Shown here: positions 2 through 23,313 of the stretch, piece after piece
Layout: each line of letters starts with the position of its first letter
Position numbering within the stretch: the first letter of the stretch is position 1
NCBI GenBank assembly: GCA_965228485.1
Contig: OZ245819.1
Location: forward strand, 210,001-242,000
DNA length: 32,000 nt
DNA from: Candidatus Saccharimonadota bacterium
Lineage (GTDB): Bacteria; Patescibacteriota; Gracilibacteria; UBA4473
Reading direction: 5' to 3'
The notes under the pieces: generated by a model
The model's database searches: none
Seen by the model: the letters and a program-made list of their open reading frames with translations, nothing else
What the model was told of the DNA's origin: nothing
Position numbers and translations under genes: made by a program

Positions 2-2293
2 TTGCAGACCGAAATTCCAGAATTAATTGAAGAAAAACGAATGGAGCTACCATTTGTTAAGAATCTTCCTGCCACAGCAGGCGGAGGGGAGAGTTCTTTC
101 CAACCAGATATTCCAAGTCTTCCAATGAGCCAGCTACCATTCTTACCACCACCTCCAAAGATGGATAATTTGACTTGTGGGATGCTTAATAATTTGAAAG
201 TTCCACTCTCATTCTTGAATTTGGAATGTATGATTCGTTTGGGAGTAGCCCCTGTGTCTGAGTGGTATGTAAAACCTCATGTAGAGAGAAGAACTAATCG
301 TTCAGCACTTTCAAAAAATAAAGACTTTACTTCGTCTTCGATTAAACCAGGACCATTTACAGGAAATCCGAGTACTATGAGTGTCTTTGGGAAAAGTGGA
401 AGAAACTCTATTTTTGAAGGAAATCATGATCAACTAAAGGAAGCGGCAAAAGGCCAAAGTTCTTTTATTAAATCCAATTCTCAATCGCCTTCCACTAAAG
501 GCTTGAATAGTATCCCCGCTTCAGGAGGTGAAACGATTAAAACTTCTTCTCTTGATCCATTAAAAGAATGGAAAAATTGGCTCGTTACAGGAGAAACAGA
601 ATCTGAAAAAGCACTAGAGCCAATCGCTTTTTTGAAAGCTCTGAAGCATTTATCAGAAACGATGCCAACCTATGTTGATGCGCAAGAAAAATTAAAAGTT
701 CAATTAGCGACAACGGAAATTCCTGAGTCTATTACCAGGGCAAGAGAGATTAAAGAAATAGATACCGCCTTTAATAATTATTTGGCTAAACTTGAATCTT
801 ACAGACAAGAACGATTACAAGAAACTAAAAGACTTAAGTATGTATACGAAAGTCAGCCAGAAACTTTCTTTGAAGATCGATTTGTTCAAAATACGATTTC
901 TAAAGACAAACGTTTCTTAGCGGCTAATACTGATAGCGCGCTTGACTTTGAAATTCCAGTGAGAGAATTTACAACCAGTGTGGCACAATTTGAACCACCA
1001 GTAGAAGATACGGCAGATTTTGAATTTGTGGCGGATAACTTTGAAGAAAATATTAATCAAGATGAATCAAGCAATAGCTGTGCCAATATGGTAAAGCCCG
1101 GGATTTACTACGGGGATGGTAATGGCGATAGCTTGGATAGAATTAATAAGCTGCCATACCGAACTATTAGTGCTTATGCGGTCTTTGACCTAGATGATGA
1201 TGGAGTGAATGAAATTCTCTATGGATTGGGAGCAGAGCTCTTTGTAAAAAGAAAATCAGGACCGAGTGGAGAAACTCTTAAGTTTAATTTGGAAGTTATC
1301 AACAGCATTGATCTAGATGATTTTGAAAGGCCTGTAGATACATTGGAAAACTATGAATTCTATGGGGCACTGAATAGTGAATTTGGAAAAGATGAATCTC
1401 TAGCCAATTATACGGAATGGGAATTCTCTGAACGACCAGACCAGATTTTTGAGCTTCATAAAACCTCCGCTAATAAGTATGCGAACTGGAAATCTTCTTT
1501 AGGGACTATTTCTAGAGGCATTCCAGAGCAGGGAACTTTGAGAGATACGACCGCTCAAATTGTAGAAGTAAAAGGTTCTCCACAGATTAAATCTCCATTA
1601 AAAATTCCTCTACTCAAGTTTGAACCAGAAGCTTGTGCCAATGAGAATATTGTAAAACCTTTCATTCAGAGTGGGATGGTTATGGCCATAGATGAACCCG
1701 CAACGGTTCAGGTTTACTTCCCACCAAATAGAGCCCGAGAAGCGAGAGTAGAAGTACATGATATTGCCCCAGGGGAAGAGCTTTATTTAGAAGATGCTGA
1801 TGTTTGCCTCTTTGAGGGAACGGCTTGGTTTGCTCAGTATGATTATTTGGATGAATATGATTTTTGGGTAACAAACCAACAAGTTTTTGCGGGTAACAAT
1901 GAGGAACTTGAGCCAAAAGTTATTAAATTTGCTGACGGATCAGAAGTACTTATTGAAGGGCGGGATGAATGGCTTGAAAAAGTAGAAGACGGGACATTCC
2001 AAAACTGGACACCTCTGATTAATACAACATTGCTATCGGCCTCTCAATTACGATTAAAACCAGATGAAGAGGTCACTATCGTTTTCAATAATGGAGAACG
2101 AAGAGTGCTGACAGGTCCAATGGATTATTATTTCCAGATCAATGATACCGATGAGGTATCAAGTGAGTTTAGATTCCCAGTACCATCGTTTGATCAAATT
2201 TATAGTCAAGTGGCTGGATTTGAAGTCAATCAAAAATCTTACTACAAACCACAATTTTTCCCTATAATTACTCAGAGTGAAGATGAAGAATAA
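2..2293 (+). CDS. Large orphan protein, probably extracellular. Its 5' end is cut by the window edge (first in-frame ATG at 41). The C-terminus carries the shared DEYDFW domain.
   Basis: A 2.3-kb uninterrupted frame is open to the window edge, and the TAA stop at 2291-2293 is overlapped by the next start. It contains LPATAGGGES (65-94), a Pro-rich stretch and one FG-GAP/VCBS-like motif FDLDDDGVNEILYG (about 1187-1228). The C-terminal domain (1547-2140) is paralogous to 4420-5004. I recognise no family for the whole protein. Confidence 0.8.
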   Translation: MQTEIPELIEEKRMELPFVKNLPATAGGGESSFQPDIPSLPMSQLPFLPPPPKMDNLTCGMLNNLKVPLSFLNLECMIRLGVAPVSEWYVKPHVERRTNRSALSKNKDFTSSSIKPGPFTGNPSTMSVFGKSGRNSIFEGNHDQLKEAAKGQSSFIKSNSQSPSTKGLNSIPASGGETIKTSSLDPLKEWKNWLVTGETESEKALEPIAFLKALKHLSETMPTYVDAQEKLKVQLATTEIPESITRAREIKEIDTAFNNYLAKLESYRQERLQETKRLKYVYESQPETFFEDRFVQNTISKDKRFLAANTDSALDFEIPVREFTTSVAQFEPPVEDTADFEFVADNFEENINQDESSNSCANMVKPGIYYGDGNGDSLDRINKLPYRTISAYAVFDLDDDGVNEILYGLGAELFVKRKSGPSGETLKFNLEVINSIDLDDFERPVDTLENYEFYGALNSEFGKDESLANYTEWEFSERPDQIFELHKTSANKYANWKSSLGTISRGIPEQGTLRDTTAQIVEVKGSPQIKSPLKIPLLKFEPEACANENIVKPFIQSGMVMAIDEPATVQVYFPPNRAREARVEVHDIAPGEELYLEDADVCLFEGTAWFAQYDYLDEYDFWVTNQQVFAGNNEELEPKVIKFADGSEVLIEGRDEWLEKVEDGTFQNWTPLINTTLLSASQLRLKPDEEVTIVFNNGERRVLTGPMDYYFQINDTDEVSSEFRFPVPSFDQIYSQVAGFEVNQKSYYKPQFFPIITQSEDEE
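1547..2140 (+). other. Copy 1 of the shared roughly 195-aa domain (TAxxV..GxPxIKxPxKIPL ... EGxAxFAxxDxxDEYDFW ... LSAxQLxLK ... YxxQI)
   Basis: By-eye alignment of the two ORF translations gives colinear blocks and two conserved Cys. Confidence 0.75.
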
Positions 2294-3374
2294 TTTATTA
2301 GGACTGGCTCTGATGTTTGGGATTTCATCCTGCTTTACGCTGGTAACGGTGGTGATTGCTCAAGGAGAATTTCAGAGCGATTTTGCTACTCCTATTGAAG
2401 AAAACAATCAAGAATACTACACGGCTTACGTTGAAAACGCTTTTCATACTAAACCTCGAGACCTAATGCAGAGTCCAGAGGAAGCTAAAAAAGAGCACGA
2501 TGAAAAAATGCAGGGAATGTTTAAGAGTGCTATGATTGATCGTGATTGTGAAAACAAAAAGAAGTATAATAAAGAGCTTAAAAAAGTAGCCCCTCAAGAA
2601 AAGTTTAAATGTATGCCAAAAGACCCTTCTATTAAACAAGAAAATACTTTTAAGGCTATTGCTCAAGCTCAACAAGAAGTAAGAGTGGCTTTGTGGGAAG
2701 AAGATAAAAAATACTTAGCAAAGCTCAATGAACCGAGTCTTTGGGATCGCCTAACGACGACTTATGCGGCTCGTCAGTCTAGTACGCCTGGAGGGAATGG
2801 GTATCAATCTCGGTGTGAAGCTCGAGGAGACCAAAAAACCACCGCTTCAGAAGAAAATTCTCCTTGTAGAGTCGCTGAAGCGGCTACAAATGAAACGGCT
2901 GGTTACGATGCGTATCTAAAGGCTCGCCTGAATCATGGGCCTGCTTTAGAACAAGATCTCTGTGAAAATTTTGCATACTTTGGAGTTGAAGATCCCAAAT
3001 GTGATGGTGGGGGATCGGCTTCTATTAATAGTTTATTCCCTGTTGTCTATGCTGCTAAAACAATGGGGGGCGTAAGTGAGATTGAACTACATAGTTTTCG
3101 ACAAATCCGTCGAGATAAATATGCTGAAGAAATGGCTGGATCTGCCAAAGCTAACAAAGAAGCGAGTCGGCAATTCACAGAAAGAGATCTAGCTCAGAAT
3201 GATCATTTGAGGACAGAGGTAACGATTCAGGGGGAGAAGGGTGAGAATGAAAGGTTAAAGCAAGCAGGAGGAAACTCTAGTGAAGAAGAGTGTCAGGGGA
3301 CGTGTAAATTTCCTAAAAAATTCCATGATGCTTCTAGTGGTCAGGGAGGAACTCAACAACATATGGATGCATAA
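2277..3374 (+). CDS. Orphan secreted protein or lipoprotein, Cys-rich and highly charged
   Basis: The ATG at 2277 (or 2283) overlaps the upstream ORF by 17 nt. The N-terminus MKMKNNLLGLALMFGISSC has a basic n-region and a hydrophobic core. ISSC fits a lipobox, and VIA|QGE is an alternative SPase I site. It has nine Cys, is E/K-rich, and shows no recognisable catalytic motif. Confidence 0.75.
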   Translation: MKMKNNLLGLALMFGISSCFTLVTVVIAQGEFQSDFATPIEENNQEYYTAYVENAFHTKPRDLMQSPEEAKKEHDEKMQGMFKSAMIDRDCENKKKYNKELKKVAPQEKFKCMPKDPSIKQENTFKAIAQAQQEVRVALWEEDKKYLAKLNEPSLWDRLTTTYAARQSSTPGGNGYQSRCEARGDQKTTASEENSPCRVAEAATNETAGYDAYLKARLNHGPALEQDLCENFAYFGVEDPKCDGGGSASINSLFPVVYAAKTMGGVSEIELHSFRQIRRDKYAEEMAGSAKANKEASRQFTERDLAQNDHLRTEVTIQGEKGENERLKQAGGNSSEEECQGTCKFPKKFHDASSGQGGTQQHMDA

Positions 3375-4063
3375 TGCTTGATATTATTTTTTCTTTATCG
3401 ATTTTTGCACTAATCAATCTAGGTCAACACCTGGAAGAAGGTGTGGCAACTGGAGGTGGTGGAGAAAGTGGATATAGTGCCGTAAGAAAGGGGGAGACAA
3501 AAGAAGGACAAGCCGAAAGAGTAAAACAAGGACAAAACTTTCCAGAAACTGGGACCGCTAAAGATGCTTATAAAAGACCTTTTGATGCGACCGATACTCA
3601 ACCCGAAAGAACAACTACTGCTGCGGTAGAATCGGCTCTTTCTGAAGATGGAGATTTTTCGGTTCCGCTTAATGAATATGATCCAGATCCTTTATTTACC
3701 CTGGATACCTTAGGGGCTCAGGCAGATCTGGATGTAAATCAAAAAACTTTTGGTCCTATAGCCGAAAATGATTCTGATATGAAGAAGCAAGATGATAGTG
3801 CGGTTTACAATGATCGAAAAGGGGATAACAACAAAACGGCTATGGTTTCAGAGGACGATTATAAAGCTCAATTTACGGAGCCTTACGGAAAGCCTCGTAA
3901 ACCTGAGAATGGAGATACTAATTATCAAATAGATGAGACTTTAGATAAACAACAGGCTGGGGCAAAGGCTCGAGAACAAAAACCTAAATACACCGATCCA
4001 TCATCAAATAAGTTGGATTCGAGCGTTGATAAAGCTTTGGTTGGTGATCCATTACAACAATGA
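3374..4063 (+). CDS. Orphan acidic low-complexity protein with a hydrophobic N-terminus followed by VATGGGGES
   Basis: The start ATG shares its A with the upstream TAA (TAATG), and the TGA stop lies inside the next start (ATGA). The N-terminal segment IIFSLSIFALINLG is hydrophobic. The rest is D/E/K/T/Q-rich, has no Cys and is probably disordered. Confidence 0.65.
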   Translation: MLDIIFSLSIFALINLGQHLEEGVATGGGGESGYSAVRKGETKEGQAERVKQGQNFPETGTAKDAYKRPFDATDTQPERTTTAAVESALSEDGDFSVPLNEYDPDPLFTLDTLGAQADLDVNQKTFGPIAENDSDMKKQDDSAVYNDRKGDNNKTAMVSEDDYKAQFTEPYGKPRKPENGDTNYQIDETLDKQQAGAKAREQKPKYTDPSSNKLDSSVDKALVGDPLQQ

Positions 4064-5703
4064 GAAAGTATTTTATGTTTCTAGTTCTATTTCTGGGGGA
4101 AACTTTTCTGGTTTCGGCTCAGTCTGGGATTGTAAAGCCCGTGAAATTAAGCCAGCCAACAGAAGCTCTTAGTAAAGTAAATCAACAAAAGATTCTACAA
4201 AAAAATAGCTGTCAATCATTGGCTACTTTAGGGGGGAGTATTCGTAAGGAAAATTATCTAAAATCGGTTAATAAATCCTTATTAAAACTTAGTAATAATG
4301 AGGATTATGCTGAGTGGTTTGTGCTTGGACCGCCTTTTATTCGTCAGCCAGAAGATCATCGAGTTTCACTGGGGCTAACGGTTCGGGCAGATGGCCAAGA
4401 TATGGAAGTTCGAGAGACAACTGCCAAAGTGGTTTCTATTACCGGGACTCCTAAAATTAAAGCCCCGATAAAAATTCCATTAAGAAAAACTTCTTTAGAG
4501 GACTGTGATCAGCTGGATGTGGTAGATTCCTTTGTGAAAAAAGGGAGGGTTTTTGCTGAAACTGAGTCAGTAGCTCTCTCTGTTTATGACCTAAAGGATA
4601 GAGATGAACCGCCTGTTCAGATTAAACTGAATCCAGGGCAAGAAATCTTTTTAGAAAATAAGAAGGTTTGTAATTATGAGGGACAGGCTTATTTTGCTCG
4701 TTTTGATTTCTTTGATGAATATGATTTTTGGCAGAATAACCGAAAGGCTTTCTCACGACAGAAGACTAATAACGGTACTGTCATTAAATTTTTTGATGGT
4801 TCTTCTTTGCTAGTAGATGATCGGGAAGGTTGGTTTTCCGAATTAGGATTGGCTCGTTTGACGTCTTTTAATCCACTTAAAGAGGATGAGGTAATTTTAT
4901 CTGCAGCGCAGCTTGATCTAAAAAAAGGAGATAAGGTTAAACTAGAATTTTCTAATGGTTTGACTCGGACCTTTAGTATTCCTGGTAAATATTGTTATCA
5001 GATTGAGGCCCTTCCTTTGGAGGTCCTACTCAGCGAAGAGGAGGAAGAAGAAAAGAAAGAGGAGGAAGAAAAATCGGATGAAGATAAACCATTTTCTTCT
5101 GGGGTTAATAACGTAAATGCTTGTCGTCCTTCTCAGTATCCACCTAATGATAAATCAAACTCAGCCAGAATGGACCGTATTCGTGGGAATATGTGTAAAA
5201 CCTTTTCTAAGGATGTTTCAACCCGTCAGAACGGAGTGCATATTAATCAGCCGCATCAGGTTCCAAACAATCTGACCAATAGAGGGCAAAATAGTGATGG
5301 GAGTTGTGATAGTCCTCCAGCACCAAGAAGTAAGCAGCCAAGAAATAAACCAGAAGGACGAAAATCTGTGAGTGATCGTTATGACGAAATTTTAAATAAG
5401 AATGTTTATGGTCACGATCAAGATATTGCAGGTTTAGCTGATGCTGGAGGAGCTTCGGCTTATGGAGATACGAGTTATGTTTCGGCTTTACGTTCGGTGA
5501 TTAACTTCAAAGCAGAAAAATTTAATAGAGATACGAAAAAAATGGAAAGAACTCGGGAAACCGAAGCGGTTCAAACTCGGCTTGAAAGAGAATCTCAGTC
5601 TCAAGAAGAAGAATTCAAAGCTAATAAACTTAAAAATTGTCAGATGACTGAATATAGACATCATATGGAAGATTTAGCTGGTAAACCAAAAGTATCCTCG
5701 TAA
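4060..5703 (+). CDS. Orphan secreted protein: signal peptide, shared DEYDFW domain, poly-E/K linker and a basic C-terminal region
   Basis: MRKYFMFLVLFLGETFLVSA|QSG is a classical Sec signal. Residues encoded by 4420-5004 are paralogous to 1547-2140. An acidic run LSEEEEEEKKEEEEKSDED is encoded at about 5030-5090. The start overlaps the upstream stop as ATGA. Confidence 0.85.
   Translation: MRKYFMFLVLFLGETFLVSAQSGIVKPVKLSQPTEALSKVNQQKILQKNSCQSLATLGGSIRKENYLKSVNKSLLKLSNNEDYAEWFVLGPPFIRQPEDHRVSLGLTVRADGQDMEVRETTAKVVSITGTPKIKAPIKIPLRKTSLEDCDQLDVVDSFVKKGRVFAETESVALSVYDLKDRDEPPVQIKLNPGQEIFLENKKVCNYEGQAYFARFDFFDEYDFWQNNRKAFSRQKTNNGTVIKFFDGSSLLVDDREGWFSELGLARLTSFNPLKEDEVILSAAQLDLKKGDKVKLEFSNGLTRTFSIPGKYCYQIEALPLEVLLSEEEEEEKKEEEEKSDEDKPFSSGVNNVNACRPSQYPPNDKSNSARMDRIRGNMCKTFSKDVSTRQNGVHINQPHQVPNNLTNRGQNSDGSCDSPPAPRSKQPRNKPEGRKSVSDRYDEILNKNVYGHDQDIAGLADAGGASAYGDTSYVSALRSVINFKAEKFNRDTKKMERTRETEAVQTRLERESQSQEEEFKANKLKNCQMTEYRHHMEDLAGKPKVSS
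4420..5004 (+). other. Copy 2 of the shared roughly 195-aa domain
   Basis: It has the same blocks as 1547-2140: TAKVVSITGTPKIKAPIKIPLRK, PGQEIFLE..VCNYEGQAYFARFDFFDEYDFW, VIKFFDGSSLLVDDREGW, LSAAQLDLKKGD and YCYQI. Confidence 0.75.
5037..5070 (+). repeat. 13-nt purine direct repeat AGAGGAGGAAGAA, two copies (5037-5049 and 5058-5070), offset 21 nt and in frame
   Basis: Read directly from the sequence inside the poly-Glu/Lys linker of CDS 4060-5703. Confidence 0.8.
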
Positions 5704-7652
5704 TGAAACATCTTATTATTTCAATGTTCCTAACAATTGCTTTGAGTCCATTGACTCAAGCACAGAGCTGTACTCCACCGAGTACGATACAGTCTATTTG
5801 TGGAGAATGTAAAGGTGGAGGTGGCGGTTCAGGTGAAAATACTGGTGACTTCAAGATAAAAGATAAATCTTTGTTGGCTAAATATGGGAGAGTTGATGCT
5901 ATGCCGAATGTTCCAAAATCTTTGTCAAAAACCCTAGATCAGTGTTGGGAAGATATTCGAAAACTAGATCAAGAATGTAATAGTGAAGGGGACGAATCAG
6001 TGTGTCAAAAGAGTCGAAAATGTATGGATAACTACCATAAAATTGTGAATTCTTTTACTCGGGCACACTCTGATGATTTACCAGAATCAGAAGATCGTCA
6101 CGATCAAGAGCTTATGGATAAGCTTCAGAAAGAAACAGACCCTCAAAATTTAGCTACCTGTGCTGATGAGGAGTCAGAAAAATCACAGGGACTTCAGCCA
6201 GCAGAAAAAACGATTGATAAGTTAGAGAAGCCCAATGAAGATGAGTTTGAAGGTTCTGAACAACCCGCTCCAGCCAGTGGAGAATTTGGTCCAGATGTGC
6301 CAGGGCTAAAAGGGGGAAAAGGTTTTGTTCAAGATCAGGGAAAACGACATAGAGATTTAGAGACACCAGAAAGTGATGGTCCCTATCAAAAAGCTAAAGA
6401 AGAAAAAGAAAAGGGGAAAGTCTCGTTTTTAAACTTCTTTATTTCAGGGGCGGTAGCCAATGATAGTATGGAAGATTCGAGAACAGGATTCTTTGGGAGA
6501 TTAAAGGATTCTATTGGAAGTTTTTTTAAGGGGGGTGGTAAAGCTCGAGAGCAAGGGGCAAAATCATTTGATCAAGGAGAATATATTGCTCAAAATCGGG
6601 TACAAACTATTTTAGCGAGAAGTGGTGATCAGGCTTTGAAAAGGAATTACCAGCAATTTACCGAAGAAAAAAATCATCAGACTCGACTTAATAATGACGT
6701 TGCAGGAGAAGGTGAGGCGGCCATTCAAGAACGTTTTTCCAAAAATGTAGATGAACAAAAAAAGACGAATGATGAGTTAGATAAAGCGATTAAGGCTATT
6801 GCCAAAATCTGTCAAAATCAACAAGCAGAAATCAAATGCTGGAAGACCGGTAACACTCCACCACCTCTGCCTTTTCCATTTGGAGGTGGGCCTGCACCAG
6901 AAGAAACACCTCAGGAAGAGTTAGAAGATTGGAGTGAATTAATAAAACGTTCGGCGAGTTATTACTGTCCATCTGTTGATCAGCCTTTAATCCTTACAGC
7001 TGAGGAGGGGATTTGGCATTCTGGTCTTATTCTCACTCCAAAAGGAATTGTGCTTACTCATTTAGATCCGATGAAAGATTATGACTTTCATCCAAAGGGG
7101 TGTTTGGTTCGTATGCCTGATCCATTGGATCCAGAAAATTTTGAAGTTTATGTTTCTGAGCCTCGTTTTGTAGAGGGAATTTCTTCGAGAGATAACTTAA
7201 TATTCTTGGTGCCAGAAGCTCCACATGTTGAAAATAATGAGTTCCTTGGTTCACCAGAGAAAGATCGAAAATTTCCGACGATCTTAGATTATATCTCTCA
7301 ATCAACCGATACTTGTGCTCAATCTGATCTAAAAATGGGAACGCCTTTAAAACTGATTGGTTATAATACTCCAGAACGTTTTGAAAAAAATCGTCCAGTT
7401 GCAATTCTAGAGGCCCTTAGTACGACTTTCCCAAGTGGAGAACAGAAAACAATGACCGCTGTAGTTGAAGCCAAAGATGGTATGACTGGAGCGATTTTAG
7501 CTCACAGAGATAATCAGTGTTTTCAGGGAATTGCACGGATTAAAAAAGTAGATGAAGAGGTAACCATAAGAGATATTATCCCTCTAGAAACGATTCAAAT
7601 ATTTGTCGAAGAAGCTGTAGAGGTGCTTAATGCCGATAAACAGGAAAGTTAA
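5703..7652 (+). CDS. Orphan secreted protein: signal peptide, Cys-rich N-terminal region with a Gly5 run, charged middle and a C-terminal chymotrypsin-fold-like domain
   Basis: MKHLIISMFLTIALSPLTQA|QSC is a signal peptide, and the TAATG junction links it to the upstream ORF. The C-terminal roughly 230 aa show trypsin-like block order (see the feature at 6955-7640). Confidence 0.85.
   Translation: MKHLIISMFLTIALSPLTQAQSCTPPSTIQSICGECKGGGGGSGENTGDFKIKDKSLLAKYGRVDAMPNVPKSLSKTLDQCWEDIRKLDQECNSEGDESVCQKSRKCMDNYHKIVNSFTRAHSDDLPESEDRHDQELMDKLQKETDPQNLATCADEESEKSQGLQPAEKTIDKLEKPNEDEFEGSEQPAPASGEFGPDVPGLKGGKGFVQDQGKRHRDLETPESDGPYQKAKEEKEKGKVSFLNFFISGAVANDSMEDSRTGFFGRLKDSIGSFFKGGGKAREQGAKSFDQGEYIAQNRVQTILARSGDQALKRNYQQFTEEKNHQTRLNNDVAGEGEAAIQERFSKNVDEQKKTNDELDKAIKAIAKICQNQQAEIKCWKTGNTPPPLPFPFGGGPAPEETPQEELEDWSELIKRSASYYCPSVDQPLILTAEEGIWHSGLILTPKGIVLTHLDPMKDYDFHPKGCLVRMPDPLDPENFEVYVSEPRFVEGISSRDNLIFLVPEAPHVENNEFLGSPEKDRKFPTILDYISQSTDTCAQSDLKMGTPLKLIGYNTPERFEKNRPVAILEALSTTFPSGEQKTMTAVVEAKDGMTGAILAHRDNQCFQGIARIKKVDEEVTIRDIIPLETIQIFVEEAVEVLNADKQES
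6955..7640 (+). other. Putative PA-clan (trypsin/HtrA-like) peptidase fold with Thr in place of the Ser nucleophile
   Basis: WHSGLILTPKGIVLTHLD resembles GSGfvis.dGyilTnaHV (His codon 7059-7061). RDNLIFLV resembles DlAllkv (Asp codon 7191-7193). MGTPLKLIGYNTP resembles vGd.v.aiGnP. KDGMTGAILAHRDNQCFQGIA resembles GnSGGPlvn..G.vvGI (Thr codon 7485-7487). His-to-Asp spacing is 44 residues and Asp-to-Thr spacing is 98. In chymotrypsin numbering, H57-D102-S195 gives 45 and 93. Confidence 0.45.
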
Positions 7653-7655
7653 TTT

Positions 7656-8336
7656 TTAGCCAAATACAGCCCAACTTTTTCTGATCCACTGCCAAAGTTT
7701 AAAAGCGGTCATTACTGATGAATCTACTCGTTCCCCTTCCCGTTTTAGAGTCGTGACATTTCCAACACCAACCTCAGTGATGGTGTTTGTGTCTGCCATG
7801 ATTCGTGCTTGCTCTTCCCGTTCATGGGCACGATTGTCCGCTCGAGTTTCTTCGGTGTATCCTGCAATTTTTCTCTCTTTGTTAGCGGTTTGAGAATGAG
7901 TTAGATGTTGTTGTTGAAGTGCTTGAGTTCGTTCATTTTTTTGGCGAGTATCCTCTAGGACTTCTTGGATATCTTGCCTATTGGTTGGATACTGAGAGCA
8001 GTCTTTATTAATATTTGCCTCAACATCAGCACGACACTGACTACAATTTTTTAGATTTTTTGTGGTTTCCTCCGTTACGGTTTTATGATTGGCCTTGTTG
8101 TCATCGTCAATATCTTTAGCTCCTTTTACTTCACCTTCACCTTCTTTGTGACATTTATTCGCTTTTTCTAATTTCTTTTTAACGGCTTCATAAAGCGCCT
8201 TTTTTGTAGGGTCTGTACATTCTTGCTCAGTAAAAGGTTTAAAGGTAATTGGGCATTTTGCTTCGGAGGCAAAAGTTGTCTGAGAAGATGCAATAATCAC
8301 ACTTGTAACGATAAAACTGCTTACACGCCAATTCAT
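7656..8336 (-). CDS. Orphan secreted protein with six Cys, a charged body and a Trp-rich amphipathic C-terminal tail
   Basis: MNWRVSSFIVTSVIIASSQTTFA|SEAKC is a signal peptide. The C-terminus is FKLWQWIRKSWAVFG. It lies 76 nt downstream of the secA stop on the same strand, and its end is 3 nt from the stop of CDS 5703-7652. Confidence 0.75.
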   Translation of the reverse strand: MNWRVSSFIVTSVIIASSQTTFASEAKCPITFKPFTEQECTDPTKKALYEAVKKKLEKANKCHKEGEGEVKGAKDIDDDNKANHKTVTEETTKNLKNCSQCRADVEANINKDCSQYPTNRQDIQEVLEDTRQKNERTQALQQQHLTHSQTANKERKIAGYTEETRADNRAHEREEQARIMADTNTITEVGVGNVTTLKREGERVDSSVMTAFKLWQWIRKSWAVFG

Positions 8337-8412: not shown

Positions 8413-10977
8413 CTATTTATTCTTTTTTTTCTGGTCTCTTTCCATGGCTCGACGTTGTTGTCGTGAGAGCCCTTGTTTCTCTCCAACGCCAAATTCGGCT
8501 GTGTTTTCTAAAGTGTCAGTAATTTGGTCAGCATTGGTCTGAGCTTCGCTGTAATCTGCTGCTTCAAATTTCGGTTTTTCTTTAAACTGTACTCGGAATA
8601 GATTTGAAATAGCGGTTAAACGTACGCTTTGTAGAAGTTTTGAAAACATTCTGAAAGCTTCTGCTTTATATTCCATAATAGGGTCTTTCTGCGCGTATCC
8701 AGAAAGCGCTACTCGGTCTCTTAGATGCGTCATTTGATCAATATGTTCCAGCCAAAGTTCATCGATTGAACGAAGAATGATTTGTTTAGAAACTTCATCA
8801 ACCAATTCTTCTGGGAATTCGTCTTTTTTGGTATCCCAACTAGAGAGCAGGTAGTTTTGTAGTGATTCAATCATCTCATCTCGGTGGTGAAAAGCTTCTA
8901 GCTCTTCTAGACTTAATGGTTCAGATTTATTTTGATGCACGGCGGTAATAATTTCAAAAATCTCTTTTGCGTCCCAGCTTCTGTCTGCTTCTGGAGTAGG
9001 AGCATACATTTCAACGATTTGAGAGACTAAATCTTTAATCATCTCATCTACGTCATCTAATATAGCCTCTGAACTTAGTAGTTTTTTTCTTCGAGCGTAA
9101 ATTTTTTCTCGATGGATGTTCATGACATCATCGTATTGAACTACGTGTTTACGGGCGTCAAAATGGAATCCTTCAATTTTCTTTTGAGCATTTTCTACCG
9201 ATTTCGAAATCATACTATTTTCGATGGCTTCATCAGCAGGAAGTCCCATTCGTTCCATCAAAGATTCTAGTTTTTCTCCACCAAAACGTCTCATGAGTTG
9301 ATCCGTCATAGCCACGTAGAATTGAGAAAACCCTGGGTCTCCTTGTCTTCCAGCACGCCCTCGAAGCTGATTATCAATTCGTCGAGATTCATGTCTTTCT
9401 GTTCCGACAATAGCTAGTCCACCAAGCTCCTTTACTCCTTCTCCAAGTTTGATATCGGTTCCTCGCCCCGCCATATTTGTGGCAATGGTTACCGCTCCTT
9501 TTTGTCCAGCATTAGCAACGATTTCTGCTTCTCGTTCGTGATGTTTGGCATTAAGTACCTCATGGGTAATCCCTGCTTGAGAAAGGGCTTGAGAGAGGAT
9601 TTCAGATTGGTCAATATTTACCGTTCCGATAAGCACCGGTTGTCCGTGGGTGTTAAGCGCTTTTACGTGGTCAATCAAAGCTTTTGTTTTTCCATTTTGA
9701 TTTTTAAAGATTTTATCTGGAAGGTCTTGTCTCTGAATAGATTTATTTGTTGGAATAACGATTGTGTCTAGTCGATAGATTTTTGCGAATTCTTCAGCTT
9801 CAGTTTCAGCGGTTCCTGTCATTCCTGCTAGCTTGTTGTAAATTCTGAAGTAGTTTTGGAAAGTAATGGTTGCAAGTGTTTTGGATTCTCTTTGTATTTC
9901 AACCGCTTCCTTAGCTTCTAGGGCTTGATGTAATCCATCAGAATATCGACGACCACTCATCATTCGCCCAGTAAATTCATCGATAATAACCACTTTTCCA
10001 TCTCGAATTACGTAGTCTTGATCCTTTATCATTACCACATTAGCTTTTAGAGCATTTTCGATGTGATGTACTTCTTCAAAACCAGCTTCTGTATAGAAAT
10101 TAGAAATACTTAAAAGTTCCTCAAGACGTTTCACACCATCCTCTGTAAGGTGAACCGTTTTTTGTTTGTAATCAATGTTGTAGTCTTGGTTTTCTACAAG
10201 CTTAGGAATAATTTGAGAGTATACTTGGTATTTATCAGTAGATTCTTCGGCTGGTGCTGAGATAATTAAAGGGGTTCGGGCTTCATCAATTAAAATAGAA
10301 TCTACTTCATCTACAATGGCATAATTTAGTTCTTTCTGGACAATGTCTTCTGGACGTTGAGCCATATTATCTCGAAGATAATCAAATCCAAATTCATTAT
10401 TGGTCCCATAAGTAATGTCAGAGTTGTAAGCCCCTCGTCTTTCTTCCGTAGTTTTTTCGTTAACAATAACTCCAACAGTTAATCCACAAAATTCATAGAG
10501 TGGCTTCATCCATTCGGCATCCCGTGAAGCTAGATAATCATTAACAGTAATCACGTGGACTCCTTTTCCTGTAAGTGCATTAAGGATTACTGGGAGAGTA
10601 CAAACAAGAGTTTTCCCTTCTCCTGTTTTCATTTCAGAAATTTTTCCTTCATGGAGAACCATCCCTCCAATAAGCTGAACATCAAAATGAACCATATTCC
10701 ATTCAGTCATTTTCCCACTCACTTCAAAGCTTTGTCCACAAAGCCTTTTTCCTGCACTTTTAATCCCTGCAAAAACCTCAGGTAGTAATTCGTCTATTTT
10801 GTCAGGAGATTCTGAAAGTTCAATTTTCCATTCGGCAAATTTGGCTTTCATTTCATCATCGCTAAGTTTTGAAAAATCTTCATAAAGAGCATTTATTTGA
10901 GCAACCTTCGGTTGAAGATTTTTAATCTGTTTTTCATTGTAGTTTCCAAAGAGTTTATCGATAAAAGATTGGATCAT
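8413..10977 (-). CDS. secA: Preprotein translocase ATPase SecA
   Basis: This is a full-length 854-aa ORF. It has the DEAD-motor Walker A region MKTGEGKTLV, the DEVDSILIDEARTPLIIS box and the TNMAGRGTDIKLG motif. The basic C-terminal tail lacks the Cys-rich zinc motif. Confidence 0.97.
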   Translation of the reverse strand: MIQSFIDKLFGNYNEKQIKNLQPKVAQINALYEDFSKLSDDEMKAKFAEWKIELSESPDKIDELLPEVFAGIKSAGKRLCGQSFEVSGKMTEWNMVHFDVQLIGGMVLHEGKISEMKTGEGKTLVCTLPVILNALTGKGVHVITVNDYLASRDAEWMKPLYEFCGLTVGVIVNEKTTEERRGAYNSDITYGTNNEFGFDYLRDNMAQRPEDIVQKELNYAIVDEVDSILIDEARTPLIISAPAEESTDKYQVYSQIIPKLVENQDYNIDYKQKTVHLTEDGVKRLEELLSISNFYTEAGFEEVHHIENALKANVVMIKDQDYVIRDGKVVIIDEFTGRMMSGRRYSDGLHQALEAKEAVEIQRESKTLATITFQNYFRIYNKLAGMTGTAETEAEEFAKIYRLDTIVIPTNKSIQRQDLPDKIFKNQNGKTKALIDHVKALNTHGQPVLIGTVNIDQSEILSQALSQAGITHEVLNAKHHEREAEIVANAGQKGAVTIATNMAGRGTDIKLGEGVKELGGLAIVGTERHESRRIDNQLRGRAGRQGDPGFSQFYVAMTDQLMRRFGGEKLESLMERMGLPADEAIENSMISKSVENAQKKIEGFHFDARKHVVQYDDVMNIHREKIYARRKKLLSSEAILDDVDEMIKDLVSQIVEMYAPTPEADRSWDAKEIFEIITAVHQNKSEPLSLEELEAFHHRDEMIESLQNYLLSSWDTKKDEFPEELVDEVSKQIILRSIDELWLEHIDQMTHLRDRVALSGYAQKDPIMEYKAEAFRMFSKLLQSVRLTAISNLFRVQFKEKPKFEAADYSEAQTNADQITDTLENTAEFGVGEKQGLSRQQRRAMERDQKKKNK

Positions 10978-13096: not shown

Positions 13097-14164
13097 ATGG
13101 ATTTTAATCAGGTTGTCGACTTTGCCACACAAAATGGAGTGTCAGATATTCATCTAATTGCTGGTTCGCCTATTTTTATGCGTCGAGATGGACAGATGCA
13201 AGCGATGGGAAATCCCGTTGAAGAATCTTTTATCAGTAACATTGTTGAGTCAGTAGTAACGCCAATTCAAAAGAAGCATCTTGAGGATAAACGTCAGGTT
13301 GATTTTCTTTATCAGACACCGAAAGGCATACGTTTGAGAGGGAATGCTTTTTTTACTCATAATGGACTTTCTGTTTGTTTTCGAGTGATTTTGAGTGAGC
13401 CACCAGATTTTAATGTTCTTGGTTTTCCTGATTTTGTGGGAGAAGAACTTATGAGAGCAAAACAAGGTCTTGTGCTTGTTGTTGGTCCCACTGGTCAGGG
13501 TAAATCAACGACTATTGCTTCTCTTATTAAAGCTCGAACAACGGCTTATACTGAGCATGTTTTGATGATCGAAGACCCAGTAGAATATGTAGTTCCAAAT
13601 TCCAAGAGTGTTATTCAACAGCGTGAGATTGGGCGAGATGTTCTAAGTTTTGAAGCGGGTATTATGGGAGCCCTAAGAGAAGACCCTGATCTACTTATGA
13701 TTGGAGAAATCCGTGATAAAGAAACTATGGCAGCAACATTAACATTGGCCGAAACAGGCCATCTTGTATTAGGAACACTTCATACTAATAGTGCTGTACA
13801 GACTATTACACGAATTCTTGATAGTTTTACGGCCGAGCAACGTCCACAAGTGAGAAGTCAATTAGCGAGTCATTTATCTATGGTTATTTCTCAACGACTG
13901 GTTCCAAGAGCTGATGGAAATGGACGAGCTTTGGCTTTTGAGATTTTGACCATGAATTATGCAGTCGCAAATTATATTCGTCAGGATAAAATCTTCCAAA
14001 TTCCAAATGTTATGCAAACTGATAACTCAGGAAGAATGATTCAGTTTGAACAATCTCTAGTTGGTCTCGTAATGGCTAAAAAGATTAGTAAGGAAGTAGC
14101 CATTGAATATGCCAATGATAAAAACCAGCTAAAAGCTCTATTTGAACTTAATAATATTGCCTAA
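13097..14164 (+). CDS. pilT: Type IV pilus retraction ATPase, PilT family (copy 1)
   Basis: It has Walker A GPTGQGKSTT, the Asp box/Walker B DPDLLMIGEIRD, the His box GHLVLGTLHTNSA and a PilT-type C-terminal motif AVANYIRQDKIFQI (compare AIRNLIRE). Confidence 0.9.
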   Translation: MDFNQVVDFATQNGVSDIHLIAGSPIFMRRDGQMQAMGNPVEESFISNIVESVVTPIQKKHLEDKRQVDFLYQTPKGIRLRGNAFFTHNGLSVCFRVILSEPPDFNVLGFPDFVGEELMRAKQGLVLVVGPTGQGKSTTIASLIKARTTAYTEHVLMIEDPVEYVVPNSKSVIQQREIGRDVLSFEAGIMGALREDPDLLMIGEIRDKETMAATLTLAETGHLVLGTLHTNSAVQTITRILDSFTAEQRPQVRSQLASHLSMVISQRLVPRADGNGRALAFEILTMNYAVANYIRQDKIFQIPNVMQTDNSGRMIQFEQSLVGLVMAKKISKEVAIEYANDKNQLKALFELNNIA

Positions 14165-14166
14165 GT

Positions 14167-15249
14167 ATGAATTTTGATCTTGATCAGATTTTAGAATATG
14201 CCATTAGCAAGGGGGCCTCTGATATTCATATTAGTCCAGGTAAACCGCCATGTTTTCGTATTGCGGGAAAGATAGTCCCTGTTGGAGAACCGGTAAACTC
14301 TGGAAATATCCAGACACTAGTTGGACAGGTTTTAGATGGTTTTCAACAGGCCAAAATTGACGAGTTTAGAGATATAGATTTTGTTCACACGACAATTAAG
14401 AAGAACCGTTTTAGAGGGAATGCCTATCATACTAGAGATGGCATTTCTTTTGCGTTTAGACTAATCGCGCAAAATATACCAGCTTTTGACACACTCGGAT
14501 TACCGCAGTTTGTTCTCGATTATGTAATGAAGCTTAATAAAGGGTTGGTACTTGTTGTTGGACCAACTGGACATGGTAAATCAACGACGTTAGCGTCAAT
14601 GATTAAGCGAAGAGCTGACGCTAAGGCTGAACATTTTATCCTCTTAGAAGATCCAATTGAGTTTTTGATTGATTCAGATACGAGCATTGTTCATCAAAGA
14701 AGTCTTGCTCGGGATGTGCATACTTTTGAGAGAGGATTAAAAGCGGCACTGAGAGAAGATCCAGACGTTATGATGGTGGGGGAAATGCGTGATCTTGAAA
14801 CCATTACTGCCGCATTAACAGCTGCAGAAACTGGGCATGTAGTCTTTTCAACTTTACATACTAATAGTGCTGCAGAGACCATTCACAGAATTATTGATGT
14901 TTTCCCTTCTGAGAAACAATTACAAATTCGTTCTCAGCTGGCTTCAAGCTTGGCGTTAGTGATTTCACAACGTCTACTTGAGGGGGCTGATGGACGACGA
15001 GTCCTAGCTTATGAGGTTATGACGAGTAATTATGCTATTAAAAATCATATTCGTCAGAATTCTGTTTTCCAAATTCCAAATGCGATGCAAACCGATAATT
15101 CTGGGCGAATGGTGTTATTTGATCAGTCTTTAGCTTTCTTAGTTAAAAGTGGTAAAGTTGCTTATGAAGTGGCAAAAGATTCGGCTCATTTTCCAGACCA
15201 GTTAGATTATATTTTGGAGACTTCAGGTTTTGATTTTGAATCAAAATAA
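14167..15249 (+). CDS. pilT: Type IV pilus retraction ATPase, PilT family (copy 2, tandem paralog)
   Basis: It starts 2 nt after the stop of copy 1. It has GPTGHGKSTT, DPDVMMVGEMRD, GHVVFSTLHTNSA and AIKNHIRQNSVFQI. Confidence 0.9.
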   Translation: MNFDLDQILEYAISKGASDIHISPGKPPCFRIAGKIVPVGEPVNSGNIQTLVGQVLDGFQQAKIDEFRDIDFVHTTIKKNRFRGNAYHTRDGISFAFRLIAQNIPAFDTLGLPQFVLDYVMKLNKGLVLVVGPTGHGKSTTLASMIKRRADAKAEHFILLEDPIEFLIDSDTSIVHQRSLARDVHTFERGLKAALREDPDVMMVGEMRDLETITAALTAAETGHVVFSTLHTNSAAETIHRIIDVFPSEKQLQIRSQLASSLALVISQRLLEGADGRRVLAYEVMTSNYAIKNHIRQNSVFQIPNAMQTDNSGRMVLFDQSLAFLVKSGKVAYEVAKDSAHFPDQLDYILETSGFDFESK

Positions 15250-19835: not shown

Positions 19836-20446
19836 AAAAAGCTCAAGGAGAATCAGCTATTCGCTTAATTTTATTGTCGATATTTGTTATTTTACTTATT
19901 GGGTTCTTTCTAAGGAATGCGGCCTTGTATATTAGAGCTTCTCATGAAGCAACAGCACAGGATCAACTATCAAAGATGAATTTTCTCATTCAGGCTTATT
20001 TTATAGAAAATAATAATTCCTATTTTGTTCATACACATTCAGATATTTTCATGCCTTATGAAGGAAACTCTAGAAAGGGGATTAAACCCAGCAAGCAGAC
20101 ATTAGCTCAGCTATTTTTAGAAAACGATTTCACGCCTGCAAAACCAGGGAAAACAAACTGTTATCTATATGTTTATTGGCCAGCTGAAATAAGTCGTGAA
20201 AATTTAGATAAAGATAAAAATCTTTATTTAATTTCAACATGGGGAGTCCAGACAAACACCGTCTTGACTGCTGGATCATTAGAACTACAAAAGTGGGCTC
20301 AGAAGAATTTAAAGGAAAATCATTTTGAGTGTGATATTTCAAAAATGACTCCTAGACGCAAAGCGATTTCACTTGATGGTTCATCAATAAATATACCAGG
20401 ATTTAATTTTCAATTTGTAGAGGACCAATATACAAAATCCTACTAA
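19832..20446 (+). CDS. Type IV pilin-like/pseudopilin-like protein with a non-canonical N-terminus
   Basis: The start ATGA overlaps the upstream stop. In MKKAQG|ESAIRLILLSIFVILLIGFFL, a short basic leader ends in Gly and is followed by a roughly 20-aa hydrophobic helix. Next comes ALYIRASHEATAQDQLSKMNFLIQAYFIENNNSY, which follows the pilin alpha-1C pattern (A..L..i..A...Y...ng.Y). Positions +1 and +5 are E and R instead of F/M and E. Confidence 0.5.
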   Translation: MKKAQGESAIRLILLSIFVILLIGFFLRNAALYIRASHEATAQDQLSKMNFLIQAYFIENNNSYFVHTHSDIFMPYEGNSRKGIKPSKQTLAQLFLENDFTPAKPGKTNCYLYVYWPAEISRENLDKDKNLYLISTWGVQTNTVLTAGSLELQKWAQKNLKENHFECDISKMTPRRKAISLDGSSINIPGFNFQFVEDQYTKSY

Positions 20447-21153
20447 ATAATCATATCTAGGGTGTTTTCTAATAGAGCCTTGTTCACTCCATACTTCATT
20501 CTCATTGGGCCAAGAATCCCAAGGTGTCCAGAGATGTTCTCGTTTTTAAAATAAGAAACGAGCATTGCACAACTCGAAATTTCTTCAAGAAGGTTTTCCT
20601 CACCAATAAATATTTTTACATTTTTTTCTGGAAGACTTAGTCCAGATAGAAGTTTTTGTAGCTGAGTTCTCCCTTCAAATACTTCAAAAATCTGAGCAGC
20701 CTTTTCTGGTTCAGCAATAAACTCAGGACTTCGTAACACATTAGAAAGTCCCAAGTAGAAAGTTTGATCATCTTCAATACTGGCGAAGGCAACGTTCCCT
20801 GAAAGCTGAGAAATAATTCTAAGGGCATCGAAGAGGCTTTCTTTGCTTTTAGAGAGCTTGTATTCTTGAACGTATTTTTCAAATATATTATGAACAATCT
20901 GTTGATCTTCTTGTTCATCGATAAGCTCATCTACAAAAAAACGATATCCTTTTTGAGTTGGAACTTTACCAGCAGAAACATGAGGAGAATGAATCAGACC
21001 TACTTCTTCCAAGATAGCAAATTCATTTCTTACGGTTGCGGAAGATATATCAAAGTTATGAGACTCGATTAACTTCTTTGAAGCTACAGGATTTGCAGTC
21101 TCAATAAAGTCTTGAACAAGAGTTTTTAAAATTATGAGTGTTCGTTCTTTCAT
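20443..21153 (-). CDS. hrcA: Heat-inducible transcription repressor HrcA (short form, 236 aa)
   Basis: I chose the start at Met57 of the track ORF (cat at 21151-21153). MKERTLIILKTLVQDFIETANPVASKKLIE...SSATVRNEFAILEEVGLIHSPHVSAGKVPTQKGYRFFVDELI is the canonical HrcA winged-helix N-terminus. The C-terminal GILGPMRMKYGVN matches the conserved IGPtRMdY block. Confidence 0.9.
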   Translation of the reverse strand: MKERTLIILKTLVQDFIETANPVASKKLIESHNFDISSATVRNEFAILEEVGLIHSPHVSAGKVPTQKGYRFFVDELIDEQEDQQIVHNIFEKYVQEYKLSKSKESLFDALRIISQLSGNVAFASIEDDQTFYLGLSNVLRSPEFIAEPEKAAQIFEVFEGRTQLQKLLSGLSLPEKNVKIFIGEENLLEEISSCAMLVSYFKNENISGHLGILGPMRMKYGVNKALLENTLDMII

Positions 21154-21183
21154 CAAAATATATTCTAAGTAAAGTAGCAATAT

Positions 21184-23313
21184 ATGCAATATGTTGAGGT
21201 ATACTTGAAGAACGTTACAGAAATTTATACTTGGCACACAAGTATACCTGTTCAGATTGGGAGTAGGGTTGAACTCCTTTTCAGAAATAAGCCAAAAATT
21301 GGAGTTGTTACTAAAATTCATACAACTCCTCCTGATTTTGAAACCAAAAGCATTCTGAGCGTTCTAGATCTGGAATTTGTTCCCTCTAAGTATATTGATT
21401 TTGCTTTTGATATTTCAGAAATCTGCTTTTGCAAGCCCACTAAGGTGTTGAGCCTTATGATTCCTTCTAAGTTTTTTTTAAAGAAACAAGCTTTAGAGAT
21501 GAATCGTTATTATACTTTGATAGAAAAAAATCGAGAAGTATTAGAAAAAATAAAGGGAAAAAAACAAAAAGAACTTATTGAGTATTTAGGCAATAATCCT
21601 CAAGTAGAACATAGTGTTATTACTAAACTGTTTACAACGGGAACTATCAAATCTCTCTTAGATCGGGATATTATTAGATGTGAAAAAAATGGATATATAT
21701 TGGCTTCTAATTGTGAAGAATTAGATGAAGCGGTTGCACTGAGCTCTGTGCAATTGAAGGCTGTTAAAAGCATAAAAAATGCAGAGACACCTTCTTTGTT
21801 ATGGGGAGTCACAGGAAGTGGAAAAACTGAGATTTACAAGCAGCTAGCCAAAGAGTTAATAACTCAAGATGGTCAAATGTTATTACTAGTTCCAGAGATT
21901 GGACTGACACCTCAACTCATTAATCACTTTAAAGGGATATTTGGGGACAAGGTTGTTGTTTGGCATTCTAATTTATCTGATGGAGAAAAATTACGTACTT
22001 GGCTGAGTATGTTTACAGGAGAAGCCAAAGTTTTAATTGGAGCTCGTTCGGCCGTTTTAGTGCCGATTCCAAATCTTAAGCTTATAATTTTAGACGAAGA
22101 ACATGAATGGACTTATAAAAACGAATTTGTTCCGAGGTTTTGGACTCATGACATTGTTGAATTGTTGGCACAAAAATTTGAGGCACAACTACTCTTTGGG
22201 ACCGCTACTCCAAGAGTTGAAAGTATTAATAGGGTCGAAAAAGATGACTGGAATTTGGTTCGCTTAGATAAACGTTTTTTTGAAGCTCCAAAATCAAATA
22301 TTCAATTAGTGGATCTTAAAAATGAAATAAAAAGAGGAAATGCTTCACCTTTGTCAGAAGCACTTGTAAAAAATATTAGAGAAATTGTAAACGATAATAG
22401 ACAAGTTGTACTATTTCTCAATAAACGAGGTTTTGCAGGAGCAACTATGTGTCGTTTTTGTGGTCAAACTTTTGAGTGTAAAAACTGTAGTGCTCATATG
22501 AAAGTTCATGGGATCAGTCAACCTAAATTGATCTGTCATATCTGTCACTATATACAACCATTCCCCAAAAAATGCCCTACTTGTAGTTCTGAAAACTTTA
22601 AATTTCAAGGATGGGGGACGCAACAAGTTGAGCAATTGCTAAAACAAAATTTTCCTGACAAAAAAATTCTTAGGGCTGATAGCGATGCTTTGGGGAGTAA
22701 ATATGATTTTGATGATTTAATACAAAAGTTCCACAATCATGAAGCTGACATATTGCTCGGAACACAGATGATTGCTAAAGGTCTTGATTTTGCAAAAGTT
22801 GATTTAGTCGGTCTTATTTTAGCAGATGTAGGGCTTAACCTGCCTGATTTTAGGTCTGAAGAAAGAGTTTTTCAGTTATTAAATCAGGTAGCAGGAAGAA
22901 CGGGGAGAAGGGGACAAGAAAGCCGTGTTATTGTTCAGACTTTTGAACCAGATCATGAAGTTTTTAAATATCTTTTAAAAGATGATATTCCTGGATTTTT
23001 GGAGACCCAAAAGTTATCTAGAAAGTCTATGAATATGCCACCGTTTAGCCACATTGCTAAAATTACCTTTTCTGATCCGAGTAAAACTACAGCCTTTGCT
23101 GAAACAAAAAAGTTTTTTGAAATCCTAAAGCAAATAATTACCGATGAAGAAGAATGCTTTTGGGCTCCAGCATTTTTTCCCAAAGTTCATAATAAATACT
23201 GGTTTTATATTTTTCTTAAGACTCGTGATATAGATAAAACAAAAGCAATACTTCAAAATGTCGATATTCCAAAAGAAGCAAAACTTGATCTGAGTCCTAT
23301 AAGTTTATTGTAA
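21184..23313 (+). CDS. priA: Primosomal replication-restart helicase PriA
   Basis: It has an N-terminal 3'-DNA-binding-type block (IGSRVELLFRNKPKIGVV), Walker A GVTGSGKTE, the DEEH box, and the Cys-rich zinc insertion CRFCGQTFECKNCSAHMKVH...CHICHY...CPTCSS. The motif QVAGRTGRRG is also present. Confidence 0.93.
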   Translation: MQYVEVYLKNVTEIYTWHTSIPVQIGSRVELLFRNKPKIGVVTKIHTTPPDFETKSILSVLDLEFVPSKYIDFAFDISEICFCKPTKVLSLMIPSKFFLKKQALEMNRYYTLIEKNREVLEKIKGKKQKELIEYLGNNPQVEHSVITKLFTTGTIKSLLDRDIIRCEKNGYILASNCEELDEAVALSSVQLKAVKSIKNAETPSLLWGVTGSGKTEIYKQLAKELITQDGQMLLLVPEIGLTPQLINHFKGIFGDKVVVWHSNLSDGEKLRTWLSMFTGEAKVLIGARSAVLVPIPNLKLIILDEEHEWTYKNEFVPRFWTHDIVELLAQKFEAQLLFGTATPRVESINRVEKDDWNLVRLDKRFFEAPKSNIQLVDLKNEIKRGNASPLSEALVKNIREIVNDNRQVVLFLNKRGFAGATMCRFCGQTFECKNCSAHMKVHGISQPKLICHICHYIQPFPKKCPTCSSENFKFQGWGTQQVEQLLKQNFPDKKILRADSDALGSKYDFDDLIQKFHNHEADILLGTQMIAKGLDFAKVDLVGLILADVGLNLPDFRSEERVFQLLNQVAGRTGRRGQESRVIVQTFEPDHEVFKYLLKDDIPGFLETQKLSRKSMNMPPFSHIAKITFSDPSKTTAFAETKKFFEILKQIITDEEECFWAPAFFPKVHNKYWFYIFLKTRDIDKTKAILQNVDIPKEAKLDLSPISLL

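Follow-up and report, generated by a model that had tools for sequence, protein, structure and literature searches.

The question raised by this locus is whether the C-terminal part of an orphan protein, encoded by orfE, is a chymotrypsin-fold peptidase and, if so, whether it could still be an enzyme. The gene lies in a 32,000-nucleotide stretch of DNA from a Candidatus Saccharimonadota bacterium (GTDB lineage Gracilibacteria; contig OZ245819.1, positions 210,001 to 242,000 of the forward strand), which as a whole is called the window here and whose own numbering is used throughout. A sequence-only reading of the window had proposed that the C-terminal domain of orfE is a chymotrypsin-fold peptidase with a His/Asp/Thr triad, and that it is either a pseudoprotease or an unusual enzyme with a Thr nucleophile. 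The fold is borne out, and the first of the two options is favored: residues ~418-649 are most likely an inactive PA-fold domain. The gene and the domain are as follows.

5703..7652, + strand: orfE, coding for a 649 amino acid protein that is predicted to be secreted; stop codon TAA
6954..7649, + strand: residues 418-649, chymotrypsin-fold (PA-clan, trypsin-2/HtrA-like) domain with a degenerate active site, from homology, AlphaFold2, and Foldseek

The open reading frame (ORF) at 5703-7652 (+) and its length of 649 amino acids are as first read, and the four peptides then quoted in support of a protease are found at residues 438-455, 496-503, 545-557, and 591-611. The domain span that was given, 6955-7640, needs its start moved by one base to be in frame, as the codon of A418 begins at 6954.

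Homology and fold of the C-terminal domain

Direct sequence searches were negative. Neither the full protein nor its C-terminal 232 residues matched a protease family in a Pfam scan at E<=10, the protein had no NCBIfam match, and phmmer of the domain against PDB sequences returned nothing. A word-indexed homologue search with the full protein recovered P0002 alone, at 34% identity, and the same kind of search with profile A2 (25 domain sequences) recovered three proteins only. The profile of the triad-less clade to which the window protein belongs gave just a chance antibody match in the PDB (E 0.5). Genome contigs searched with alignment A1 yielded no relative, nor did a first search of metagenome contigs with A5; a second, with A6 from the sister subclade, yielded two loci. 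Taken alone, the negative direct searches would make the resemblance to a protease look like chance.

The link to known peptidases emerges through intermediate sequences. When residues 418-649 were compared by phmmer with 1.84 billion representative proteins, 45 matches were obtained at E<=1e-3. Among them P0002-P0004 are full-length homologues of 646-653 amino acids (E 1e-46 to 7e-32), and 37 others are shorter or built differently, P0005 scoring 5.4e-13; the canonical blocks GSG...LTNxH[IV], YD[IL]A[YF]L, and GNSGG are present in all but one of these 37. All five of the triad-bearing relatives that were scanned (P0005, P0007, P0010, P0013, and P0021) pass the Pfam family Trypsin_2 (PF13365) at 1e-13 to 1e-16, and P0013 and P0021 additionally pass Trypsin (PF00089); in NCBIfam, P0005 and P0007 match DegP/HtrA/DegS models below the cut-off. 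Searched against the PDB, the A2 profile finds Deg2, Deg9, DegP, HtrA, DegS, HtrA1, and SplB at 2e-12 to 1e-7. The direct Pfam scan, which had been proposed as a check on the fold, is negative, but the profile-profile comparison is positive: hhalign of A3 (the window's own clade) with A4 (the triad-bearing clade) gives 99.8% probability and E 1.6e-28 over 219 columns. A hidden Markov model built from triad-bearing sequences only scores the window ORF at 85.7 bits. By these comparisons, the similarity of residues 418-649 to trypsin/HtrA peptidases is one of true homology, far beyond chance.

The predicted structure agrees. An AlphaFold2 model computed on A2 has a mean predicted local distance difference test score (pLDDT) of 89.1 and a predicted template modeling score of 0.87, and its strand pattern corresponds to two beta-barrels followed by a C-terminal helix. 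Foldseek with this model gave 228 PDB matches at E<=1e-3, and the best 50 of the 228 are all PA-clan proteases or pseudoproteases, led by the protease domain of MamO (5hm9, 2e-7), DegS, TEV protease, HtrA1, and SplB, with DegP and Deg9 also represented; in the viral library, the matches were potyvirus NIa and picorna-like 3C proteases. A second, full-length model used eight triad-less clade members as its only input. Its overall pLDDT is poor, at 61, but its C-terminal domain matches TEV protease, SplB, HtrA1, DegS, thrombin, and heparin-binding protein in Foldseek; because the triad-less sequences by themselves again recover PA-clan matches, the fold call does not depend on signal from the active relatives. 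Phmmer, Trypsin_2, the A2 profile, hhalign, AlphaFold2, and Foldseek all concur on a chymotrypsin-fold domain, and a lack of any PA-clan hit, which would have spoken against the fold, was not what the searches found.

A chance resemblance of motifs in a protein that is not of protease fold would sit well with the absence of a Pfam match, of a phmmer match in the PDB, and of a PDB protease among the hits of the clade-only profile. It is refuted, however, by transitive homology at E 1e-13 to 1e-28, by the confident model, and by the structural matches, and its probability is negligible.

Catalytic columns of the window protein and its clade

The register of the active site was taken from three independent alignments (MAFFT L-INS-i with 45 sequences, MAFFT with 25, and hhalign), with no gaps between GSG and TNxH. 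The residues concerned are these.

7059..7061, + strand: H453, on the conserved Asn of TNxH, two residues before the catalytic column (alignments)
7065..7067, + strand: D455, at the catalytic-His (chymotrypsin His57) column (ungapped alignment)
7191..7193, + strand: D497, on the Tyr column just before the Asp102 column
7194..7196, + strand: N498, at the catalytic-Asp (Asp102) column (alignments)
7485..7487, + strand: T595, at the nucleophile (Ser195) column, DGMTGA versus GNSGG (alignments)

The coordinates first assigned to H453, D497, and T595 are exact, as are the spacings of 44 and 98 residues between them, and the Thr does occupy the nucleophile column; the triad as proposed fails at its other two members, H453 being off by two residues and D497 by one. 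In the alignments, T452-H453-L454-D455 (LTHLD) pairs with T-N-x-H (LTNxH), so that D455 falls on the column where His is invariant in the active clade, and R496-D497-N498-L499-I500-F501-L502 pairs with x-Y-D-[IL]-A-[YF]-L. Here the register is anchored by P0004, which retains YD at the D497/N498 columns followed by a clade-specific Pro at +6. In the model, DSSP ends a strand at H453, begins a short helix at D455, and puts N498 directly before a strand, which, given chymotrypsin topology, is consistent with the D455/N498 register. All three catalytic positions are consequently substituted in the window protein (D455/N498/T595). G593 stands at the oxyanion-hole Gly193 column, where GNSGG has its first Gly and four sequences of the sister subclade have Ser or Thr.

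The substitutions are not peculiar to one protein. In a neighbor-joining tree of the 45 domains, the long (~650 amino acid) proteins form one clade; P0046 and a protein of locus L082 were assessed besides. Their residues at the His/Asp/Ser columns are the following.

Window protein: D/N/T
P0002: H/N/T
P0003: D/K/T
P0004: R/D/S
P0014: S/D/S
P0017: S/D/N
P0024: S/D/S
P0035: S/D/N
P0046: S/D/N
L082 protein: S/D/N

None of the ten clade sequences (nine distinct) has an intact triad, as against H/D/S in 36/37 relatives outside the clade. The nucleophile column, for which a comparison of Ser versus Thr among orthologues had been suggested, reads T, T, T, and S in the window protein, P0002, P0003, and P0004 and is S or N elsewhere in the clade.

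A hydroxyl at the nucleophile column in the four closest homologues (T, T, T, S), the retained oxyanion-hole Gly593, and a His, an Asp, and a Thr at chymotrypsin-like spacing are what one would cite for an active PA-clan peptidase in which T595 is the nucleophile and H453 and D497 serve as register-shifted general base and acid. We regard such an enzyme, the second option of the sequence-only reading, as highly improbable. H453 and D497 lie outside the catalytic columns and are poorly kept: D497 is unique to the window protein (F, Y, and Y in P0002, P0003, and P0004, respectively), and the H453 column varies within the clade, with Thr in P0003, Val in P0014, P0017, P0024, and P0035, and Leu in P0046 and the L082 protein. 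Four clade sequences have Asn at the nucleophile column, and no set of residues capable of catalysis is conserved across the clade. Moreover, no trypsin-family protease is documented to use Thr as its nucleophile, and thrombin and trypsin are both greatly compromised by S195T (PMC8695361); MamO, with Thr at the same place, is inactive (PMC4794232). There is also very little likelihood that a subclade including P0002, which does have a His at the His57 column (H/N/T), holds natural Thr-nucleophile PA-clan hydrolases, the base in the window protein then being the displaced H453. If it did, these would be the first natural Thr-nucleophile enzymes on the chymotrypsin fold.

What the clade has kept is as informative as what it has lost. 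Four cysteines extend throughout the family:

6966..7520, + strand: C422 (6966-6968), C467 (7101-7103), C538 (7314-7316), and C606 (7518-7520)

They are common to active and inactive members and invariant in both A2 and A3; over the 45 domains, C467 and C606 are found in 45/45, C538 in 44/45, and C422 in 43/45 (two gaps). They probably form two disulfides. Within the triad-less clade, G546, G553, G596, and G609 are invariant along with the four cysteines, and K447, H463, E510, and Y530 are invariant residues specific to it. To judge from the alignments, this is the pattern that marks a fold on which selection continued once catalysis had been given up. A decaying relic domain without function would also have lost its catalytic residues, and differently in each member, as is the case here; it would hardly remain at full length in an intact ORF with four invariant Cys, the structural Gly, and K447/H463/E510/Y530 all in place, and this conservation spans proteins that are just 20-38% identical and syntenic loci of several genomes. 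That explanation is accordingly given very little weight.

The favored explanation, a pseudoprotease, would run as follows. The domain would descend from secreted or membrane-anchored serine peptidases with four conserved cysteines, and in the lineage leading to the ~650 amino acid family the His, Asp, and Ser positions would have been freed from selection, such that they now differ between proteins. Conservation persists in the fold, the domain length, the structural glycines, and the four cysteines, and the domain would therefore have been retained for a job other than catalysis. The likeliest such job may be to bind proteins or peptides, or to act as a scaffold, as the C-terminal module of an exported, disulfide-bonded protein. 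Several points weigh against this explanation. Inactivity is deduced from the identities of residues, and the binding or scaffolding role is an analogy drawn from other pseudoproteases. Direct sequence searches of Pfam and the PDB are negative, so that the link to the family, though strong, is transitive. In addition, a His and an Asp are present one to two residues off the catalytic columns, together with the hydroxyl of T595 and the oxyanion Gly593.

The rest of orfE and its genomic neighborhood

Homologues of the whole protein (P0002-P0004, P0014, and P0017) are 618-653 amino acids long. Upstream of the protease-like domain, orfE codes for the following segments.

5703..5768, + strand: residues 1-22, N-terminal signal-peptide-like segment, MKHLIISMFLTIALSPLTQAQS, without Asp or Glu
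5769..6182, + strand: residues 23-160, Cys-rich helical N-terminal region with eight Cys (full-length AlphaFold2 model)
6183..6638, + strand: residues 161-312, low-complexity, charged and Gly-rich region, predicted to be disordered (composition, AlphaFold2)
6639..6836, + strand: residues 313-378, conserved helical segment with the motif NDxxG[EQ]GxAAxxER...K and C370 at its end
6837..6890, + strand: residues 379-396, proline-rich linker, CWKTGNTPPPLPFPFGGG

Residues 1-22 would be a signal peptide, and the even total of 14 cysteines in orfE would fit an exported, disulfide-bonded protein. Immediately after the signal peptide, a CxPP motif is present in the window protein, P0002, and P0004 (three of the four closest homologues) and absent from P0003. 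In the full-length model, helices are predicted over residues 23-160 with a pLDDT of ~64-90, except for a block at 121-130 with 45; the region has no Pfam or NCBIfam match and no family or fold assignment, and Foldseek with the full-length model returned matches to the protease domain only, none to these N-terminal helices. The pLDDT is below 50 over residues 163-312. Further helices are predicted at residues 298-329 and 338-372, and G335, G337, E343, R344, and C370 are invariant in eight clade members.

The linker, C379-WKTGNTPPPLPFPFGGG-396, is 100% identical in P0002, a protein of just 34% overall identity, and all but identical in P0003 and P0004; in the sister subclade, CWExGNxIPFD is retained. 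Such conservation suggests a binding or processing motif. Docking of the linker onto the protease-like domain, at the former substrate cleft, was considered and found no support in the full-length model, where the pLDDT at residues 390-407 is below 50.

The start of orfE overlaps the stop of the preceding ORF (TAATG), and the gene is the last of a co-directional cluster of five. The neighbors are listed below.

2-2293, + strand: C-terminal 763 amino acids of a giant protein, cluster gene upstream of orfE
2277-3374, + strand: orphan, predicted secreted protein, cluster gene upstream of orfE
3374-4063, + strand: orphan, predicted secreted protein, cluster gene upstream of orfE
4060-5703, + strand: orphan, predicted secreted protein of 547 amino acids, cluster gene directly upstream of orfE
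7656..8336, - strand: convergent orphan, predicted secreted protein of 226 amino acids between orfE and secA, its position conserved in relatives
8413..10977, - strand: secA, the syntenic anchor and taxonomic marker

The five cluster ORFs overlap or abut, all have hydrophobic N-termini, and their products have no Pfam or NCBIfam match above cut-off. For secA, the best matches (74% identity) are to the complete Candidatus Altimarinota chromosome OZ246423.1 and to a Candidatus Gracilibacteria metagenome-assembled genome (MAG), followed by Peribacteria MAGs at 72-74%; Candidatus Altimarinota is the NCBI phylum name for Gracilibacteria. The same gene order, i.e., a giant protein (1483 to 2576 amino acids), two or three small proteins, the pseudoprotease protein, a convergent small protein, and secA, recurs at loci L001, L002 (a complete Ca. 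Altimarinota chromosome), and L082, and partly at L020. More generally, in the window (2-8336) and at these four loci the cluster proteins are orphans, bear signal peptides by prediction, are rich in K, E, D, and Q, and lie beside secA in several Gracilibacteria-like genomes. The protein that hosts the pseudoprotease domain would thereby be part of a lineage-specific extracellular cluster adjoining secA.

At E 2.8e-7, the giant protein of L001 weakly matches FG-GAP_3, an FG-GAP-like repeat. [quoted passage not shown] Residues 82-248 of the 547 amino acid product of 4060-5703 constitute a ~150-residue domain shared with the C-terminal part of the giant-protein genes at syntenic loci (tblastn of the 4060-5703 product: L001 6120-6566, E 3e-14; L002 18363-18776, E 2.5e-5), and on sequence comparison a module appears to have been transferred between the giant protein and a small gene distinct from it.

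About 5 kb from the cluster lie two tandem ATPases of the T2SSE family (PilT/PilB-like; 13097-14164 and 14167-15249, Pfam E 2e-46 and 8e-48); L082 has ORFs of matching length (354 and 358 amino acids) at the corresponding positions, compared by length only. Farther on, an HrcA-like ORF (20443-21321, - strand) and a divergent PriA-like ORF (21184-23313, + strand) overlap by 138 bp at their 5' ends, and one or both of the starts are probably over-extended.

Gracilibacteria/Altimarinota are known for genetic code 25, in which UGA is read as Gly. Its use in the window was rejected: table-11 ORFs of at least 120 amino acids cover 95% of the sequence, the genes for SecA, DnaE, and PriA are uninterrupted, and no in-frame TGA occurs in long conserved genes. 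TGA terminates 3/24 ORFs, with 3-10 further codons to the next stop. Since orfE contains no TGA and ends in TAA, its translation is the same under either code.

Relation to known pseudoproteases

The nearest sequence relatives with an intact triad are P0005-P0045, zinc-ribbon- or transmembrane-anchored Trypsin_2 peptidases that are themselves uncharacterized. They are 25-32% identical to the window protein across the whole domain and share the four cysteines and the loop lengths, but they differ in having H/D/S (36/37), and none has the long helical and low-complexity N-terminal half or the proline-rich linker. They appear to be an undescribed subgroup of Trypsin_2 peptidases with four conserved cysteines, usually with an N-terminal zinc ribbon plus a transmembrane segment or DUF2569, and variably with PG_binding_1, fn3, or SecDF_P1_head at the C-terminus.

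Among structurally characterized peptidases, HtrA/DegP/DegS/Deg2/Deg9 (MEROPS S1C) and staphylococcal SplB (S1B) match the domain with template modeling scores (TM-scores) of ~0.55-0.67, and the order of blocks is the same: GSG...TNxH, D[IL]A, GYP, GNSGG, G[IV]P. The window protein differs from them in its Asp/Asn/Thr for His/Asp/Ser and in the four family-specific cysteines. It falls below every Pfam/NCBIfam threshold, and unlike HtrA/DegP it has a single helix after the protease-like domain and no PDZ or HtrA match. Eukaryotic PA-clan pseudoproteases such as heparin-binding protein/azurocidin are secreted binding proteins. Azurocidin (PDB 1ae5), which is among the structural matches, likewise combines a chymotrypsin fold with replaced catalytic residues; its lineage is unrelated, its loss of catalysis independent, and there is no specific sequence similarity to the window protein.

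The closest analogue is MamO of Magnetospirillum magneticum (PDB 5hm9/5hma), which has the chymotrypsin fold, a degenerate site, and Thr at the nucleophile position. MamO is derived from HtrA, genetics and crystallography have established that it is incapable of proteolysis, and it has been repurposed; similar pseudoproteases arose several times independently (PMC4794232). Both proteins belong to monophyletic inactive clades, that of MamO descending from enzymes of the trypsin-2 superfamily (PMC4794232). The two sites have nevertheless degenerated differently, as MamO keeps the His and Asp and has a non-Gly residue at 193, whereas the window protein has replaced His and Asp and kept Gly593. 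Sequence identity is ~11-12% (Foldseek), which points to function having been lost independently.

MamO is a magnetosome membrane protein with a TauE-like domain, a di-histidine site that binds transition metals, and an active paralogue, MamE. By extension, the window domain could act allosterically on a separate, active trypsin-like protease as its partner or activator, or could bind metal; the protease domain of MamO is the top structural match and has Thr at the nucleophile position too, and in the MamE/MamO system active paralogues are repeatedly paired with inactive ones. We nonetheless think this unlikely. Neither the window nor the syntenic loci L001, L002, L020, and L082 contain a second trypsin-like ORF, and the architecture differs, as the window protein has no membrane domain (TauE-like or other), no Pfam match, and no PDZ. 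Furthermore, MamO does not surpass DegS or HtrA1 in Foldseek E-value or TM-score.

Bacterial PA-clan pseudoproteases were of course already known, and the present finding reveals no new catalytic mechanism; what is new is a lineage-specific family of them. For the orphan protein beside secA in this Gracilibacteria-like CPR lineage, the analysis is a first structural and evolutionary annotation. The family would represent an independent bacterial case, parallel to MamO, in which a serine protease scaffold was repurposed after catalysis was lost, and the dead-protease domain offers a testable handle on the orphan extracellular cluster, one that may be used as bait for its ligand.

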